In this document: positions 1 through 5,585 of the stretch, one piece after another
Position numbering within the stretch: position 1 is the stretch's first letter
How the letters are laid out: each line of letters starts with the position of its first letter
IMG/VR virus record: IMGVR_UViG_2534682307_000021
Length of the DNA stretch: 5,665 nucleotides
From: a virus
Taxonomy: Duplodnaviria; Heunggongvirae; Uroviricota; Caudoviricetes
Strand: one strand, 5' to 3'
The notes under the pieces: model-generated
Seen by the model: the letters and a program-made list of their open reading frames with translations, nothing else
The model's database searches: none
What the model was told of the DNA's origin: nothing
Made by a program: the position numbers and the translations under genes

Positions 1-58
1 AGTCGATCACCCTGGACACCGCCCCCCGTCTCATTCGTAGAAAATTTTGCTTTTCAAA

Positions 59-80
59 AAAGTTACACGAAAAGTTACAC
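59..80 (+). promoter_or_regulatory. Two direct 10-bp iterons AAAGTTACAC (59-68, 71-80) directly upstream of the terS-like gene; candidate operator or TerS/pac recognition element
   Basis: Exact 10-bp direct repeat with 12-bp start-to-start spacing, 13 nt upstream of the GAGG RBS (93-96) and ATG 103. The same motif recurs inside the downstream gene at the same 12-bp phase. Confidence 0.4.
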
Positions 81-102
81 CCCCTCAAAACGAGGTTTTT
101 GC

Positions 103-591
103 ATGGCATTAACGACCAAAAAAAAGCGGTTTGCTGATGCGTTATCAAGGGGCGCAAATCCCACGGAAGCCGCTATACATGCGGGATACAGCGAAAAGAC
201 CGCAAGGGTTAAAGGCTGGCAGCTATCCAACGATCCTGAGGTGAAAAAGTATCTTAAGGCTGTAACTTCTGATGTAACTTTTCAGGTTACAAAACCGAAA
301 AAAGTTACAAAGAAAGTTACCGAAAAAGTTACACCGGAACGGGCATCAATTAACACCATTGAGATGATGGATAACGGCCTACCCGACCCCATCAAAGCAA
401 TGGGCAGGATACTGATTGACAACATGGACACAGATCCAAAACTGGCTTTAGATGCCGCGTTTAAGCTGGCCCAGTTCACCCACCGCAAGATCGGCAGCAT
501 TGGGAAAAAAGAGGTTAAAAAACTCAATGCCGCTAGTGTCTACTCAAATCGGTTCCCCATCCCTAAGCCACCAACAGACTTAAAACACTGA
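103..591 (+). CDS. Terminase small subunit-like protein (Terminase_2 / phage P27-type N-terminal DNA-binding domain), 162 aa
   Basis: ORF with GAGG RBS 6 nt upstream. N-terminus KKKRFADALSRGANPTEAAIHAGYSEKTARVKGWQLSNDPEVKKYLK fits the conserved TerS HTH pattern (KQxRF..EY...N.T.AAI.AGYS.KTA....LL.N..V..YI) as I recall it. Size is typical for TerS. Not verified by a search. Confidence 0.7.
   Translation: MALTTKKKRFADALSRGANPTEAAIHAGYSEKTARVKGWQLSNDPEVKKYLKAVTSDVTFQVTKPKKVTKKVTEKVTPERASINTIEMMDNGLPDPIKAMGRILIDNMDTDPKLALDAAFKLAQFTHRKIGSIGKKEVKKLNAASVYSNRFPIPKPPTDLKH
262..334 (+). repeat. Array of six GTTAC/GTAAC cores at 12-bp phase inside the terS-like gene (two inverted, four direct; three full AAAGTTAC[A/C] iterons at 301, 313, 325)
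   Basis: Cores at 262, 274 (GTAAC), 286, 304, 316, 328 (GTTAC); spacing 12,12,18,12,12. Encodes a (x-V-T-x)n stretch AVTSDVTFQVTKPKKVTKKVTEKVTPE. Last iteron AAAGTTACACC (325-335) matches the upstream copy at 71-81. Confidence 0.55.
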
Positions 592-602
592 GGTAGCGAA
601 CT

Positions 603-764
603 ATGAGCGAATACATCACAGACCCTATTGATGTACTCACGGAAATCATGAACGACAAGCAGCAGTCGACCGAAATACGGTTACAGGCCGCCGCTGTTCT
701 GATGCCATATTTTCACGAAACACTAAACCCGTGCTTCCAGGAGGAGGAAGAAGATGATCTGTAA
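603..764 (+). CDS. Hypothetical small acidic protein, 53 aa (MSEYITDPIDVLTEIMNDKQQSTEIRLQAAAVLMPYFHETLNPCFQEEEEDDL); not in the supplied ORF track
   Basis: ATG 603 is 9 nt after GAGG (590-593). The ORF is open to TAA 762-764 and overlaps the next gene start (754) by 11 nt, suggesting translational coupling in a terS-X-capsid operon. No family recognised. Confidence 0.4.
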   Translation: MSEYITDPIDVLTEIMNDKQQSTEIRLQAAAVLMPYFHETLNPCFQEEEEDDL

Positions 765-1677
765 AAACATGAAAGGCGTGTCAGCAGTTCGCGCCGCCAG
801 CGTGCTGGCATCGTGTAAATTTAGCCATGCTGACGCTATAGAGATGACGAAAAGAAATGATCCGGCAGTATCGAAATTTCTTGAAAAATCCATCGTCAAC
901 AGAATGACTACGGATAACATGCCGTCGCTGGTGGCAGAGCCGATAGTAAGAGAGCTTGGCGAGTATATTTTTTCGCAGTCTGTACCAGGCAAGCTAATCA
1001 GCAGCGCGCTTAATCTTCCGTTTGGCGCAAAATTGCATTCAATATCAGGCAAGGGTAGTAAATGGCTTAAAGAAGCCGAAGAAATCCCTGTCAAAGAGGG
1101 AGAAGTAAACGAAAGTGCGCTAAAATTGTGCAAACTTGGCGCTATTGTGATGCTGAATAACGAGCTAATCAAATTTAGCACCCCTGGTACAAATTCAGCG
1201 ATCAGAGACTTGATCACATCGGAATCGGTGAAAGAAATAGATAAAAAATTTCTTTCCAGTGATCAGGAGGTGGCTGGCGTATCCCCTGAGGGCGTGCTTA
1301 ATGGTGCTGATGAGGCCGAAAACTTCATAGAGATTTTCAAAAAGCACATAGCGAACGGTAACACGCTTTCCACGTCGTCGCTAATATTGCCCGTAGAAAA
1401 CGCCTTACAGCTTACTGATGCTGAGTTCTGGCAGATAGAGCTTTTGAGAATACCGGTAATTGTGAGCGAACAGGCGGATCGCATGATGCTGATAGACGCT
1501 CAAAAGCTGATTATTAACGTTGAAGCCACGGTTATAACCCCAACTGATGAGGCGGTAATAAAAACCGAATCAGGGGCGGTTAGCCTTTTCCAGAATGACG
1601 CTACAGCGTTCAGGGCAATCACCTATTGCGGATGGCAAAAACTCGATAAGGCCGTCACCGTTCTGGCGAAAAGCTGA
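754..1677 (+). CDS. HK97-fold major capsid protein-like (Phage_capsid family), 307 aa, no N-terminal delta/scaffold domain
   Basis: Strong RBS AGGAGGAGG (739-747) 6 nt before ATG 754; in-frame alternative ATG at 769. Middle segment WLKEAEEIPVKEGEVNESALKLCKLGAIVMLNNELIKF and C-terminus GAVSLFQNDATAFRAITYCGWQKLDKAVTVL follow the conserved layout of HK97-family capsid proteins (compare recalled 80alpha-type YWVGEGQKIE...AFKLGVILPVTKEF and PVNLFEQDMVALRATMHVAL...AFAKL). Recognition from memory, not a search. Confidence 0.6.
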   Translation: MICKNMKGVSAVRAASVLASCKFSHADAIEMTKRNDPAVSKFLEKSIVNRMTTDNMPSLVAEPIVRELGEYIFSQSVPGKLISSALNLPFGAKLHSISGKGSKWLKEAEEIPVKEGEVNESALKLCKLGAIVMLNNELIKFSTPGTNSAIRDLITSESVKEIDKKFLSSDQEVAGVSPEGVLNGADEAENFIEIFKKHIANGNTLSTSSLILPVENALQLTDAEFWQIELLRIPVIVSEQADRMMLIDAQKLIINVEATVITPTDEAVIKTESGAVSLFQNDATAFRAITYCGWQKLDKAVTVLAKS

Positions 1678-1693
1678 TTTTTCCAGCATCTAT

Positions 1694-1719
1694 CCCGATA
1701 TGGGGATCACCATATCGGG
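1694..1719. repeat. Perfect palindrome P1: CCCGATATGG-GGATCA-CCATATCGGG (10-bp arms, 6-bp centre containing GATC)
   Basis: Read directly; the arms are exact reverse complements. Lies 16 nt after the capsid-like gene stop, with no following T-tract, so not a typical intrinsic terminator. Confidence 0.85.
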
Positions 1720-1722
1720 GAA

Positions 1723-1805
1723 GCACCTGAATCATCATTACCGTGATCAAGGGTATGTAAAGCCCACCAGCCTGATTAACGTTTAACCGGAAAAAAAGCC
1801 AGGTA
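1723..1805. repeat. 83-bp direct repeat DR-A, copy 1
   Basis: GCACCTGAATCATCATTACCGTGATCAAGGGTATGTAAAGCCCACCAGCCTGATTAACGTTTAACCGGAAAAAAAGCCAGGTA; 81/83 identical to copy 2 at 2260-2342. Confidence 0.85.
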
Positions 1806-1813
1806 TCCAATCT

Positions 1814-1835
1814 CGATATGGGGATCACCATATCG
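1814..1835. repeat. Palindrome P2: CGATATGG-GGATCA-CCATATCG (second copy of the P1 palindrome, 8-bp arms)
   Basis: Same arms and centre as P1; lies 8 nt after DR-A copy 1. Confidence 0.85.
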
Positions 1836-1899
1836 GGATACGGCGGTAACTGGTTGATATTTTCGAAATTCGCCAGCGGCGAACATCGGGGAAACCAGC

Positions 1900-1918
1900 C
1901 TAACCCGTTGATTCTTCC
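1900..1918. repeat. 19-bp conserved box, copy a (CTAACCCGTTGATTCTTCC)
   Basis: 18/19 identical to copy c and 16/19 to copy b; abuts the hairpin at 1918-1944. Confidence 0.7.
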
Positions 1919-1944
1919 CAATTTCCACAGACTGCGGAAATTGG
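1918..1944. repeat. Inverted repeat / hairpin CCAATTTCC-(9 nt)-GGAAATTGG
   Basis: 9-bp perfect arms with a 9-nt loop, read directly. Confidence 0.75.
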
Positions 1945-2026
1945 CGCGGTAACTTACTGAGATTAAAGCAAAGCGCAAAATTGCGTTGGCTGGTGGGCCT
2001 GATGCCGATAACTGGTTGGAATTGTT

Positions 2027-2050
2027 CCATAGTGCAAAATTGCACTATGG
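2027..2050. repeat. Palindrome CCATAGTGCAA-AA-TTGCACTATGG (11-bp arms)
   Basis: Read directly. Shares the core CAAAATTGC with a weaker palindrome at about 1971-1983 (GCGCAAAATTGCG). Immediately precedes box copy b. Confidence 0.75.
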
Positions 2051-2051
2051 C

Positions 2052-2070
2052 CTAACCCATTGATTATTTC
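2052..2070. repeat. 19-bp conserved box, copy b (CTAACCCATTGATTATTTC)
   Basis: 17/19 identical to copy c; followed by palindrome CCCCCA-T-TGGGGG (2076-2088). Confidence 0.65.
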
Positions 2071-2105
2071 GAAAACCCCCATTGGGGGATGTTGGGAAAG
2101 TAAGA

Positions 2106-2124
2106 CTAACCCATTGATTCTTCC
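2106..2124. repeat. 19-bp conserved box, copy c (CTAACCCATTGATTCTTCC)
   Basis: Followed by palindrome CCTCAA-T-TTGAGG (2130-2142). A further palindrome TGGTCAT-A-ATGACCA lies at 2174-2188. Confidence 0.7.
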
Positions 2125-2259
2125 ACAATCCTCAATTTGAGGAGATCGGAAACATCACCCTTCAAATTCTGAATGGTCATAATGACCACGCAGACCATCA
2201 AGGCAACCACAACGAACATCGTTACGGTTGGAGCTTTTACCCCACTGGGGAAAAGGTAC

Positions 2260-2342
2260 GCACCTGAATCATCATTACCGTGATCAAGGGTATGTAAAGG
2301 CCACCAGCCTGATTAACATTTAACCGGAAAAAAAGCCAGGTA
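2260..2342. repeat. 83-bp direct repeat DR-A, copy 2
   Basis: 81/83 identical to 1723-1805 (mismatches at 1764/2301 and 1781/2318). Followed by a degenerate P copy (2343-2364, GTGGGGATACCCATATCGGGG) and preceded by palindrome CCCCA-C-TGGGG (2241-2251). Confidence 0.85.
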
Positions 2343-2425
2343 GGTGGGGATACCCATATCGGGGAACATCCACCAGCTTCATAACGGATGGCCGGAAAAT
2401 GATAACGGTTAAAGCGTGTTGATCT

Positions 2426-2455
2426 TTGTTCGTGGTTGTTCGATATTGTTCGTGA
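2426..2455. repeat. Three tandem 10-bp iterons TTGTTCG-NNN (TTGTTCGTGG, TTGTTCGATA, TTGTTCGTGA)
   Basis: TTGTTCG at 2426, 2436, 2446 at exact 10-bp (one helical turn) phasing; a weaker copy lies just upstream (about 2416-2424). Confidence 0.7.
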
Positions 2456-2458
2456 AAC

Positions 2459-2482
2459 GGTGTAGTTAATGGTGTAGTTAAT
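2459..2482. repeat. Perfect tandem duplication of 12-mer GGTGTAGTTAAT
   Basis: Two identical adjacent 12-mers, followed by an AT-rich tract (2483-2575) containing palindrome GATAG-TTAT-CTATC (2556-2569). Confidence 0.75.
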
Positions 2483-2655
2483 TTCGCTGTTTTTGACGGA
2501 GTTGTTATTTGTAACATAGTGAAAAATAAAGACTAATCAATGAAATGTTATAAATGATAGTTATCTATCATGTGGAGTAGATTGGTCAGGCAAATAAGCT
2601 CTTGTCAGCGGCAGGGCGTTCTGCCGATAACCGTAACCGAAGATGATAACTGACA

Positions 2656-2976
2656 ATGGGTAAAACGAACGACTGGCTGGACTTTGATCAACTGGCGGAA
2701 GAAAAAGTTCGCGACGCGCTAAAACCGCCATCTATGTATAAAGTGATATTAGTCAATGATGATTACACTCCGATGGAGTTTGTTATTGACGTGTTACAAA
2801 AATTCTTTTCTTATGATGTAGAACGTGCAACGCAATTGATGCTCGCTGTTCACTACCAGGGGAAGGCCATTTGCGGAGTCTTTACCGCCGAGGTTGCAGA
2901 AACCAAAGTGGCGATGGTGAACAAGTACGCGAGGGAGAATGAGCATCCATTGCTGTGTACGCTAGAAAAAGCCTGA
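2656..2976 (+). CDS. clpS: ClpS, ATP-dependent Clp protease adaptor (N-degron recognition), 106 aa
   Basis: Translation [51 protein letters not shown]... matches E. coli ClpS as I recall it; conserved position directly upstream of clpA. Confidence 0.95.
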
Positions 2977-3006: not shown

Positions 3007-5283
3007 ATGCTCAATCAAGAACTGGAACTCAGTTTAAATATGGCTTTCGCCAGAGCGCGCGAGCACCGTCATGAGTTTATGACCGTCGAGCACTTGTTAC
3101 TGGCGCTGCTCAGTAACCCATCTGCCCGGGAGGCGCTGGAAGCGTGTTCTGTGGATTTGGTTGCGCTCCGTCAGGAACTGGAAGCCTTTATTGAACAAAC
3201 CACACCCGTTCTGCCTGCCAGTGAAGAGGAGCGCGACACACAGCCGACGCTGAGTTTTCAGCGTGTACTGCAACGTGCGGTCTTCCATGTCCAGTCCTCC
3301 GGTCGCAATGAGGTTACCGGTGCAAACGTTCTGGTCGCTATCTTTAGCGAACAGGAGTCGCAGGCGGCATATCTGTTGCGTAAACATGAAGTCAGCCGTC
3401 TCGATGTGGTGAACTTTATCTCTCATGGCACGCGTAAAGACGAGCCGACACAGTCTTCTGATCCTGGCAGCCAGCCAAACAGCGAAGAACAAGCTGGTGG
3501 GGAGGAACGTATGGAGAATTTCACGACGAACCTGAATCAGCTTGCGCGCGTGGGCGGAATCGACCCACTGATTGGTCGTGAGAAGGAGCTGGAGCGTGCT
3601 ATTCAGGTTCTCTGCCGTCGCCGTAAAAACAACCCGCTGCTAGTGGGGGAATCTGGTGTCGGTAAAACCGCGATTGCAGAAGGTCTTGCCTGGCGAATTG
3701 TTCAGGGCGATGTGCCGGAAGTGATGGCTGACTGTACGATTTACTCTCTCGATATCGGTTCTCTGTTAGCGGGCACAAAATATCGCGGCGACTTTGAAAA
3801 ACGTTTTAAAGCGTTGCTCAAGCAGCTGGAGCAGGACACTAACAGCATCCTGTTTATTGATGAGATCCACACCATTATCGGTGCGGGTGCAGCGTCTGGT
3901 GGTCAGGTTGATGCGGCTAACCTAATCAAACCGTTGCTCTCCAGCGGTAAAATTCGCGTAATTGGTTCGACAACCTATCAGGAGTTCAGCAACATTTTCG
4001 AGAAAGACCGTGCTCTGGCGCGTCGCTTCCAGAAAATTGATATTACTGAACCGTCGATCGAAGAAACTGTTCAAATCATCAATGGCCTGAAACCGAAGTA
4101 TGAAGCACACCACGACGTGCGTTATACCGCAAAAGCGGTGCGTGCGGCGGTAGAGCTGGCGGTGAAATACATTAACGATCGTCATCTGCCGGATAAAGCC
4201 ATTGATGTTATCGACGAAGCGGGCGCTCGCGCACGTCTGATGCCGGTAAGCAAACGCAAGAAAACCGTTAATGTGGCGGATATTGAGTCCGTGGTGGCCC
4301 GTATTGCACGCATTCCAGAGAAGAGTGTTTCTCAGAGTGACCGCGATACCCTGAAAAACCTCGGCGATCGCCTGAAAATGCTGGTCTTCGGTCAGGATAA
4401 AGCCATTGAGGCGCTGACTGAAGCCATTAAGATGGCGCGTGCAGGTTTAGGTCACGAACATAAACCGGTCGGTTCGTTCCTGTTTGCCGGCCCTACCGGG
4501 GTCGGGAAAACAGAGGTGACGGTACAGCTTTCGAAAGCTTTGGGCATTGAGCTTCTGCGCTTTGATATGTCCGAGTATATGGAACGCCATACTGTCAGCC
4601 GTCTTATTGGTGCGCCTCCGGGATACGTTGGTTTTGATCAGGGCGGTTTGCTGACTGATGCGGTCATCAAGCATCCACATGCGGTGCTGCTGCTGGACGA
4701 AATCGAGAAAGCGCACCCGGACGTGTTCAATATTCTGTTGCAGGTGATGGACAACGGTACGCTGACCGATAACAACGGACGCAAAGCGGACTTCCGTAAC
4801 GTGGTACTGGTGATGACCACTAACGCCGGGGTACGGGAAACTGAGCGCAAATCCATTGGTCTTATCCACCAGGATAACAGCACCGATGCGATGGAAGAGA
4901 TCAAGAAGATCTTTACACCGGAATTCCGTAACCGTCTCGACAACATTATCTGGTTCGATCATCTGTCAACTGACGTGATCCATCAGGTGGTGGATAAATT
5001 CATCGTCGAGTTGCAGGTTCAGCTGGATCAGAAAGGTGTTTCTCTGGAAGTGAGCCAGGAAGCGCGTAACTGGCTGGCCGAGAAAGGTTACGACCGGGCA
5101 ATGGGCGCACGTCCGATGGCGCGTGTCATCCAGGACAACCTGAAAAAACCGCTCGCCAACGAACTGCTGTTTGGTTCGCTGGTGGACGGCGGTCAGGTCA
5201 CCGTCGCGCTGGATAAAGAGAAAAATGAGCTGACTTACGGATTCCAGAGTGCACAAAAGCACAAGGCGGAAGCAGCGCATTAA
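3007..5283 (+). CDS. clpA: ClpA, ATP-dependent Clp protease ATP-binding subunit (AAA+ unfoldase, two nucleotide-binding domains), 758 aa
   Basis: Translation from ATG 3007 ([24 protein letters not shown]...) matches E. coli ClpA. Two Walker A motifs ([16 protein letters not shown]). RBS GGGGGAGG at 2994-3001. The ORF-track start at 2992 is rejected because it would place the RBS inside the coding sequence. Confidence 0.95.
3502..3513 (+). promoter_or_regulatory. Internal Shine-Dalgarno (GGAGG 3502-3506) plus in-frame ATG (3511-3513, Met169) within clpA; candidate internal initiation site for the short ClpA isoform
   Basis: SD-like GGAGG 4 nt upstream of an in-frame ATG at codon 169. E. coli clpA is reported to produce a shorter ClpA65 product from an internal start. 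Confidence 0.45.
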
Positions 5284-5497: not shown

Positions 5498-5585
5498 GTT
5501 CACTGCCGTACAGGCAGCTTAGAAATTCACTGGTAACATACTCCACCCGCCCACCATGTTCACTGCCGTACAGGCAGATAAAATG
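5498..5585 (+). CRISPR. Orphan type I-F CRISPR mini-array: 28-bp repeat, 32-bp spacer, degenerate terminal repeat; no cas genes in window
   Basis: Repeat 1 (5498-5525) GTTCACTGCCGTACAGGCAGCTTAGAAA matches the E. coli/Yersinia type I-F repeat, including the CTGCC-GTACA-GGCAG Cas6f hairpin. Spacer 5526-5557 TTCACTGGTAACATACTCCACCCGCCCACCAT. Repeat 2 (5558-5585) matches the first 20 nt, then diverges (23/28). Location downstream of clpA fits the known E. coli I-F locus position. Confidence 0.85.

Follow-up and report, generated by a model that had tools for sequence, protein, structure and literature searches.

The stretch of DNA analysed here (the window, 5,665 bp of a virus record) contains clpS at 2656–2976, preceded by a module of short direct repeats and an AT-rich tract. 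For gene context we used L001, a 32-kb locus of an O157:H7 genome that is identical to the window over a 401-bp query (window 2300–2700). The gene order in L001 is cspD, yljB, a tyrosine integrase, an AlpA-family regulator, an Icd-like protein, a DUF4222 protein and a 605-aa primase-helicase (D5_N/Pox_D5) described as P4-alpha-like, followed by the small terminase TerS, a capsid-family protein, a non-coding stretch, clpS and clpA. The integrase carries an Arm-DNA-bind_3 domain (Pfam PF13356, residues 8–95, E = 1.2e-16) ahead of the catalytic Phage_integrase domain (PF00589), the regulator is a 69-aa protein matching Phage_AlpA (PF05930, E = 7.9e-18), and TerS matches Terminase_2. Related IMG/VR loci were retrieved using the 24-mer of the tandem 12-mer pair as the search pattern, so that the invariance of the 12-mers among these loci is partly an ascertainment effect. 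A scan of genome contigs with the integrase gave one useful relative, from Shigella (L005), and L003/L004 are a cf-PICI at the same clpS site with 96% identical Int and 81% identical AlpA.

The repeats are of two kinds. TTGTTCG has exactly three + strand copies in the window, at 2426, 2436 and 2446, and Tandem Repeats Finder reports both a 10-bp array at 2426–2455 and a 12-bp tandem, GGTGTAGTTAAT twice, at 2459–2482 with 100% identical copies. A sequence-only reading of this DNA had pointed out the three heptamers at 10-bp spacing, the perfect tandem 12-mer and an AT-rich region downstream; the motif search and Tandem Repeats Finder confirm the first two, and the low GC is real (0.20–0.28 across about 2480–2579), but the AT-rich DNA is the spacer that leads from the repeats to an att core and not an element of its own. 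By itself the number of heptamers is unremarkable (3 observed versus 1.23 expected, with 24 of 200 shuffles reaching 3), whereas the phasing TTGT-N6-TTGT-N6-TTGT appeared in 0 of 200 shuffles of the 32-kb locus. The helical phasing of the array is not chance, and the whole module of phased repeats and 12-mer pair is kept in many independent islands. The features are as follows, with invariant positions counted across 11 distinct family-A attR arms:

2379..2425, + strand: moderately conserved island DNA forming the outer P-arm flank, no site assigned; 34 of 47 positions invariant.
2426..2452, + strand: three direct TTGTTCG repeats at 10-bp spacing, a putative array for an AlpA-family directionality factor/regulator; 25 of 27 positions invariant, in a block outside the search pattern.
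2459..2482, + strand: perfect tandem 12-mer, GGTGTAGTTAAT twice, the probable P-arm arm-type sites for the integrase N-terminal domain.
2483..2553, + strand: AT-rich variable spacer from the arm sites to the core, GC 0.20–0.33; 31 of 71 positions invariant.
2554..2570, + strand: att core, attR copy, ATGATAGTTATCTATCA, the island/chromosome crossover site; a 17-mer common to attB, attL and the circle junction, 17 of 17 positions invariant.
2571..2655, + strand: chromosomal 5′ region of clpS, the B′ side of attR; identical to the BL21 clpS upstream sequence.

A scan with the IHF consensus found a one-mismatch IHF-like site in the spacer at 2535–2547, in a window whose overall count of such matches is not significant. 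An Rfam search at E ≤ 0.1 gave no RNA family in or near the repeat region, and blastn of the arm against a phage collection gave no match.

The boundary of the island was located by comparison with complete Escherichia coli genomes. The 401-bp query has matches in 5,425 of 5,426 of these, with coverage of at least 80% in only 365, and window 2300–2549 is carried by only those 365 of 5,426. In the 28 listed island-free rows, BL21(DE3) and CFT073 among them, the alignment starts at query position 251, which is window 2550, while many O157:H7 and O103:H2 genomes match the island part of the window at 100% identity. In BL21, clpS directly follows yljB with no island between. The sequence-only reading had left it to such an alignment to decide between island and core genome, and had staked its proposal on the segment not being the ordinary clpS upstream region of island-free E. 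coli; run against those genomes, the alignment identifies island DNA up to 2553, absent there. A PICI-type satellite of ∼9 kb occupies the space between yljB and clpS, and window 1–2553 is its right end.

Comparing attB (BL21), attL and attR defines a 17-bp core, ATGATAGTTATCTATCA, at window 2554–2570 and L001 7120–7136. In it, TTAT is enclosed by the inverted half-sites TGATAG/CTATCA. The core overlaps the stop codon of yljB, and its bases are also present in the island-free attB. Due to this comparison, 2416–2553 can be assigned to the island, 2554–2570 to the crossover core, and everything from 2571 onward to the chromosome. Since island DNA stops at 2553, the last 22 bases of the repeat segment (2554–2575) are core plus 5 bases of chromosome. 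The attL copy of the core has a T at position 12, and across the four sites this position is T in attP and attL versus C in attB and attR, a pattern that fits strand exchange taking place to the left of position 12.

The other end of the island carries a matching module in direct orientation, located in L001 7137–7303, the interval that separates the attL core from the int ATG. Two GTGTTCG units 10 bp apart adjoin the core (7141 and 7151) and are followed by an AT-rich stretch, then by a phased array of four units (7214–7250; cTTGTTCGcc aTTGTTCGtc acaGTTCGcc cTTGTaCG), then by GGTGTAGTcAAT GGTGTAGTTAAT, and after a further 23 nt by the int ATG. With at most one mismatch allowed, the 12-mer is found in the 32-kb locus only at 7257/7269 and 16160/16172, and 7 of the 12 matches to KTGTTCG lie in the two arms (7141, 7151, 7214, 7224, 16127, 16137 and 16147).

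Joining window 2379–2553 to L001 7120–7310 gives a predicted attP, and a sibling of the island is on record in the excised form. NZ_CP148328.1 (L050), found in PLSDB, is a 10,790-bp circular E. coli record with genes for int, alpA, an Icd-like protein, a DUF4222 protein, a primase and capsid proteins. Its order is the P arm (TTGTTCG three times, GGTGTAGTTAAT twice, spacer), the core ATGATAGTTATTTATCA, the P′ arm and int, and it is identical to the predicted attP at 324 of 370 columns. The 12-mer pairs of this record are 232 bp apart, flank the core and lie immediately upstream of int. A similar layout is seen in the excised cf-PICI vB_KppS-Ant, whose Int is 47% identical: tandem GTGTATAAACAT/ATGTATAAACAC pairs stand 233 bp apart upstream of int, TGTTC-like repeats precede each pair, and the second pair lies 19 nt before the int start codon.

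The arrangement is the attP architecture of phage P4, for which we read the annotated 'attP arm sequence repeat' features of NC_001609 on the int-sense strand. From the first tandem pair (GTGGGGGCACAA AAGGGGGCATAT in P4, GGTGTAGTTAAT twice in the island), an AT-rich spacer of 53 nt in P4 and one of 71 nt in the island leads to a core of 20 bp and 17 bp, respectively; 112 nt and 120 nt further on stands the second tandem pair (TTGGGGGCATAA TTGGGGGCATCT in P4, GGTGTAGTcAAT GGTGTAGTTAAT in the island), which is separated from the int ATG by 15 nt in P4 and 23 nt in the island. In both elements, the core thus has a tandem pair of 12-bp arm repeats on either side, the pairs being in direct orientation. 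Both also encode an integrase with an Arm-DNA-bind_3 domain, the NCBI product name of P4 Int citing the arm-type DNA-binding domain, and a Vis/AlpA-family excision factor. Just upstream of its 12-mers the P4 P′ arm, like that of the island, has units at 10-bp phase, three TCCG units in P4, and both elements have the replication iteron TGTTCACC after the primase gene (crr in P4). The two differ in the sequence of the arm repeat, which is of the GGGGGCAT type in P4 and GGTGTAGTTAAT in the island, and in the core, a tRNA-Leu-derived 20-mer in P4 versus a 17-bp intergenic yljB/clpS site. P4 further has extra arm repeats (3621 and 3915), none of which were seen in the island, whereas the island, a satellite of the PICI type, has terS and a gene for a capsid-like protein but lacks sid, psu and delta.

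A second parallel is the attL of KplE1 (CPS-53; PMC2951348). The core there is followed first by RDF sites, then by three RDF sites in a block at 10-bp phase, then by Int arm-type sites and the int ATG, and the predicted order in the island is the same. There the TorI (RDF) sites have been defined experimentally as GTTCG/GATCG/GTCCG, and the phased block, GTTCG, GTTCG and GATCG, immediately precedes the IntS arm sites and the intS ATG; this attL overlaps the int promoter, and IntS and TorI both repress intS (PMC2951348). IntS has the same domain architecture as the island Int and matches Arm-DNA-bind_3, and the core-proximal sequence TTATCAGTT is common to the two systems. At the level of sequence they are distant, with IntS 22% identical to the island Int, and TorI and the island AlpA weakly similar (27% identity over 44 residues). 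The arm sites of KplE1 carry TAAA instead of a tandem 12-mer, and the island has phased arrays on both arms, KplE1 having been compared at attL.

Which protein binds which repeat can be approached through the divergence of the relatives. Three att-site families whose Int proteins are about 77% identical have the 12-mer GGTGTAGTTAAT, while a tqsA-site island has GGTGTAGTCACT twice, an rcnR-site island has (A/T)TGTGTGGTCAG twice, and vB_KppS-Ant has two GTATAAACA-type 12-mers. In L046, L048 and L049, whose 12-mer variants were found independently of the 24-mer search pattern, both copies change together as Int diverges. Between families with the same 12-mer, Int residues 31–90 are 83–97% identical, compared with about 61% for AlpA. 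From the co-variation with Int, the conservation of Int 31–90 and the P4 annotation, we infer that the 12-mers are the arm-type sites of Int.

Families differ more in the phased array (TTGTTCG, TTGTTCC, TTGTTTC and others), which also occurs without 12-mers, as TTGTTCN arrays upstream of the capsid operon (L003 6232, L005 16982 and L042 7633) and as phased arrays between int and alpA (L005, L013 and L038). RDF sites are generally head-to-tail direct repeats one helical turn apart, and the dual-purpose RDFs Apl of phage 186 and Cox of P2 act at att sites and at promoters (PMC7498355). Apl and Cox resemble the present case in having repeat arrays both at att arms and, in the relatives of the island, at promoter-proximal sites; they belong to sequence families other than that of AlpA, whose binding here is putative, and PICI AlpA proteins are described as activators, not repressors. 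It is known that alpA is required for PICI excision and induction. As an array of RDF sites, the module offers at least three direct repeats in an att arm, spaced by one helical turn (four units in the attL arm), and an island-encoded small protein of the winged-helix RDF family (the 69-aa AlpA), with the caveat that RDF sites usually occupy one arm only and phased arrays are present here on both. Taking the TorI sites, the head-to-tail rule for RDF sites, the TCCG units of P4, the need for alpA in excision and the promoter-proximal arrays together, we assign the TTGTTCG array to the AlpA-family protein, which would act on it as directionality factor and regulator; we consider this somewhat better than an even bet.

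These observations lead us to read 2416–2575 as the attR junction of a ∼9-kb PICI-type satellite, made up of the attP P arm, the 17-bp core and 5 chromosomal bases, with a probability of about 0.9. The segment has what characterizes an arm of a P4-type heterobivalent tyrosine integrase: it adjoins a short core common to attL, attR and the empty attB, the arm-type repeat is present on both attP arms, the encoded integrase has an N-terminal arm-binding domain, the repeats co-vary with integrase and att site independently of other modules, and the excised circle joins both arms across the core (NZ_CP148328.1). In the mechanism we propose, the integrase would contact the 12-mer pairs of both arms through its N-domain and the inverted TGATAG/CTATCA half-sites of the core through its catalytic domain, and this bridging of arm and core would build an intasome in which the DNA is bent across the AT-rich spacer, possibly with the help of IHF. 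The TTGTTCG repeats would serve as head-to-tail sites for the AlpA-family directionality factor, which may bend attR and attL for excision. Since the relatives have the phased array at promoter-proximal positions as well, one protein could couple excision to the activation of island genes. At attL the probable int promoter and the int ATG enclose the module, which for that reason probably autoregulates int too, as in KplE1; for AlpA acting at this module, at least transcriptionally, the idea is weakened by EcCICFT073, in which the activity of the int promoter (Pint) is unchanged by AlpA.

The sequence-only reading had taken the segment for an iteron-type replication origin, and there are several points of contact. 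Like PICI and P4 origins, the repeat region has short direct repeats adjoining an AT-rich tract, here of 20–28% GC; P4 itself has its iterons divided between two regions, ori and crr, with three 10-bp 'type 2' repeats standing in tandem in the former; and TGTTC is common to TTGTTCG and the TGTTCACC iteron. On these grounds the segment might be an origin, or the counterpart of P4 crr as an additional cis-replication region, where the primase/initiator binds the repeats and melts the AT-rich tract. This does not stand up against the rest of the locus, however, where P4-type iterons lie elsewhere. Nine TGTTCACC/GGTGAACA repeats with AT-rich stretches between them occupy L001 12432–12652, outside the window and directly 3′ of the primase gene, and the whole 32-kb locus has 11 copies of TGTTCACC versus 1.13 expected; a search for TGTTCACC-type iterons in the repeat region found none. 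TGTTCACC is the annotated 'ori type 1 repeat' of P4, present in ori and in crr, the latter just after the alpha gene. PICI origins lie 3′ of the rep gene and consist of an AT-rich region with a set of iterons on each side (PMC6092414), and origin function has been shown for EcCICFT073. By comparison with PICI origins and P4 ori-crr, the 12432–12652 cluster has the features of a true origin, whereas the TTGTTCG and 12-mer repeats are ∼3.7 kb from the primase gene rather than 3′ of an initiator gene, do not form two iteron sets flanking an AT-rich region, and do not co-vary with Rep. Mosaic islands separate the two associations. L003 has a DUF927 Rep and SSB, with the iteron AACCCGCA after rep, and yet has the identical module, TTGTTCG three times and the 12-mer twice, on both arms; in L034 a 98% identical primase is accompanied by an integrase and arrays of family B; and in L018, L039 and L042 the attR module is of family A and the primase 47% identical, L018 being the one locus of the three in which an integrase of family A was detected. 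Because of these islands, we conclude that the module follows the integrase and att site and not the replication protein. The AT-rich tract is moreover a variable att spacer that ends in the crossover core, and the type 2 repeats of P4, CCACTTAAAG, are unrelated in sequence. The predicted origin of the island is the TGTTCACC cluster after the primase gene and not the TTGTTCG/12-mer segment, for which an origin function is very improbable. Slighter still is the chance that the repeats are a pac/cos recognition site for the small terminase at the island end: TerS is encoded by the island and the long stretch of non-coding DNA that follows the packaging genes does contain the repeats, but the AAAGTTAC boxes in and before terS are the better pac candidate.

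A different alternative keeps the att site and exchanges the ligands, with TTGTTCG as the arm-type sites of the integrase and the 12-mers binding the AlpA-family factor. The lambda P′ arm, with its three tandem arm-type sites at about 10-bp spacing, offers a model for this exchange, and the presence of TTGTTCG-type arrays on both arms is likewise what arm-type sites would show. We nevertheless regard it as unlikely. P4, whose integrase has an arm-binding domain of the same family, has annotated tandem 12-mer arm repeats in exactly these positions, the experimentally defined TorI sites of KplE1 are phased sites of the GTTCG type, the 12-mer pairs co-vary with Int, and the 12-mers are confined to the att arms whereas TTGTTCN arrays are also promoter-proximal.

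The remaining alternative concerns transcription and is compatible with the att role: a promoter in the P arm could face outward, driving clpS-clpA when the island is integrated and int when it is circular, with proteins bound at the repeats modulating it. The island separates clpS from yljB and all other upstream DNA by 9–15 kb, and the sole consensus promoter match facing clpS is TTGACG-16-CATAGT at 2493–2520 on the + strand, the −35 TTGAC of which is kept in 10 of 11 distinct family-A arms. A search of the + strand from the capsid-like gene to clpS found no terminator-like site, and read-through into clpS on induction is therefore conceivable. Against the promoter, the match is only 9/12 and such matches are no more numerous than in shuffled sequence, the −10 hexamer varies (CATAGT, CATAAT, CTCAAT and CGCAAT), and the element is absent from family B and C arms; we think it improbable. 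Sigma-70 scans of attR, attL and attB gave matches not above shuffled expectation, due to which the int and clpS promoters could not be placed, and a literature search on the yljB or clpS promoter returned nothing useful. A native clpS promoter or regulator site was also considered and rejected, as the sequence upstream of ∼2550 is absent from island-free E. coli. The fallback offered by the sequence-only reading, a binding-site array in the clpS promoter region, survives in part: there is an array at the island junction, and its sites are predicted to serve recombination and not clpS regulation.

Read as an attR junction, the segment corrects a tempting misreading, in that repeats beside AT-rich DNA need not be an origin, and it places the island boundary to the base, at 2553/2554. 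An attR arm is an ordinary feature of such elements and unsurprising to specialists in site-specific recombination. The comparison does define recombination sites for an integrase family of many E. coli PICIs and cf-PICIs, at yljB/clpS and at least four other attB sites, which can be used in satellite annotation and in int-attP integration vectors. For the host, about 7% of complete E. coli genomes, including those of O157:H7 and O103:H2, have clpS parted from its upstream DNA by an island of about 9–15 kb. What remains most interesting is a testable idea, namely that AlpA is both activator and excision factor by way of phased GTTCG-type arrays, which provides a testable model of AlpA-driven excision. 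Extended to the AlpA proteins of Gram-negative PICIs and cf-PICIs in general, the proposal is that they act as activator and RDF by binding (T)TGTTCG arrays at both att arms, between int and alpA and upstream of the packaging operon, a further possibility being a link of clpS-clpA expression to island state through the P-arm module and an outward promoter; in this general form we hold it as tentative, at a little under even odds. If it is true, one phage-induced AlpA would trigger excision and late transcription together, and this would explain how excision proceeds without a separate xis gene although int transcription is unchanged by AlpA.

The iteron cluster of the island lies outside the window, directly 3′ of the primase gene, at positions 12432–12652 of L001, the O157:H7 locus that carries the whole island. 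It consists of nine iterons, TGTTCACC or GGTGAACA, with AT-rich DNA between them. These iterons are identical to those annotated as ‘ori type 1 repeat’ in phage P4, and the cluster is probably the island origin. The corresponding cluster of the sibling island L050 is found at 5557–5777. In L003, the cf-PICI at the same clpS site, Rep iterons (GCGGGTTA / TAACCCGC) are clustered 3′ of rep and again, ∼8 kb away, in non-coding DNA near the right end (13240–13420), a pairing that recalls the ori/crr pair of P4.

Phased arrays also occur in loci of related islands, away from the att arms, and in the P′ arm of P4:

L003 6232–6258; L005 16982; L042 7633 (− strand); L005 11322–11280 (− strand); L013 1322 (− strand); L038 9460: phased TTGTTCN arrays without 12-mers
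L047 (P4 record) 3966–3995, int-sense strand, P′ arm: three (T)TCCG units in exact 10-bp phase

The arrays that lack 12-mers are located either 5′ of the cf-PICI capsid operon or in the int–alpA gap, and the array at 6232–6258 in L003 is followed 17 nt on by TTTACA-N17-TATGTT. In P4, the (T)TCCG units, which carry no annotation in the record, sit immediately 5′ of the annotated tandem arm repeats; this P′ arm array parallels the TTGTTCG array of the window attR arm. The att core (window 2554–2570; in L001 within the region 7049–7136) overlaps the stop codon of yljB (24 codons); upon island integration yljB is regenerated at attL, yet it is split from clpS.

The window contains several further repeat families:

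58–80 and 258–335: AAAGTTAC boxes with a 12-bp period, in direct and inverted orientation
1840–2150: about six direct repeats of ∼19 nt each, e.g. CTAACCCATTGATTCTTCC and GGTAACTGGTTGATATTTTCG, separated by differing perfect palindromes, e.g. ATAGTGCAAAATTGCACTAT, CCAATTTCCACAGACTGCGGAAATTGG, AACCCCCATTGGGGGAT and AATCCTCAATTTGAGGAGAT
1718–1805 and 2255–2342: direct duplication of 88 nt, 95% identical, copies 537 bp apart
1691–1840, 1718–1805 / 2255–2342 and 2345–2363 (region as a whole): palindrome CCCGATATGGGGATCACCATATCGGG, more than one copy
5498–5525 and 5558–5585: CRISPR repeats (GTTCACTGCCGTACAGGCAG...), two copies, type I-F-like; Rfam CRISPR-DR4, 50.1 and 29.7 bits

In a consensus scan, four of the ∼19-nt repeats proved to be perfect IHF sites (− strand, at 1847, 1901, 2053 and 2107), and the repeat/palindrome array at 1840–2150 had no Rfam match. 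Each 88-nt copy contains a promoter-like site, TTTACA-16-AATGAT, on the − strand, and the non-coding stretch harbouring the duplication varies between strains, with O157 PV15-279 lacking 240 bp of it. The AAAGTTAC boxes, located within terS and just 5′ of it, are candidates for a pac site or an operator for the island small terminase. Between clpA and tRNA-Ser, the two CRISPR repeats and a single 32-nt spacer make up the array.

The sibling island L050 (NZ_CP148328.1) was deposited as a 10.8-kb non-mobilizable ‘plasmid’; in its entirety the record represents a PICI in excised, circular form, whose attP lies where the ends of the record meet.
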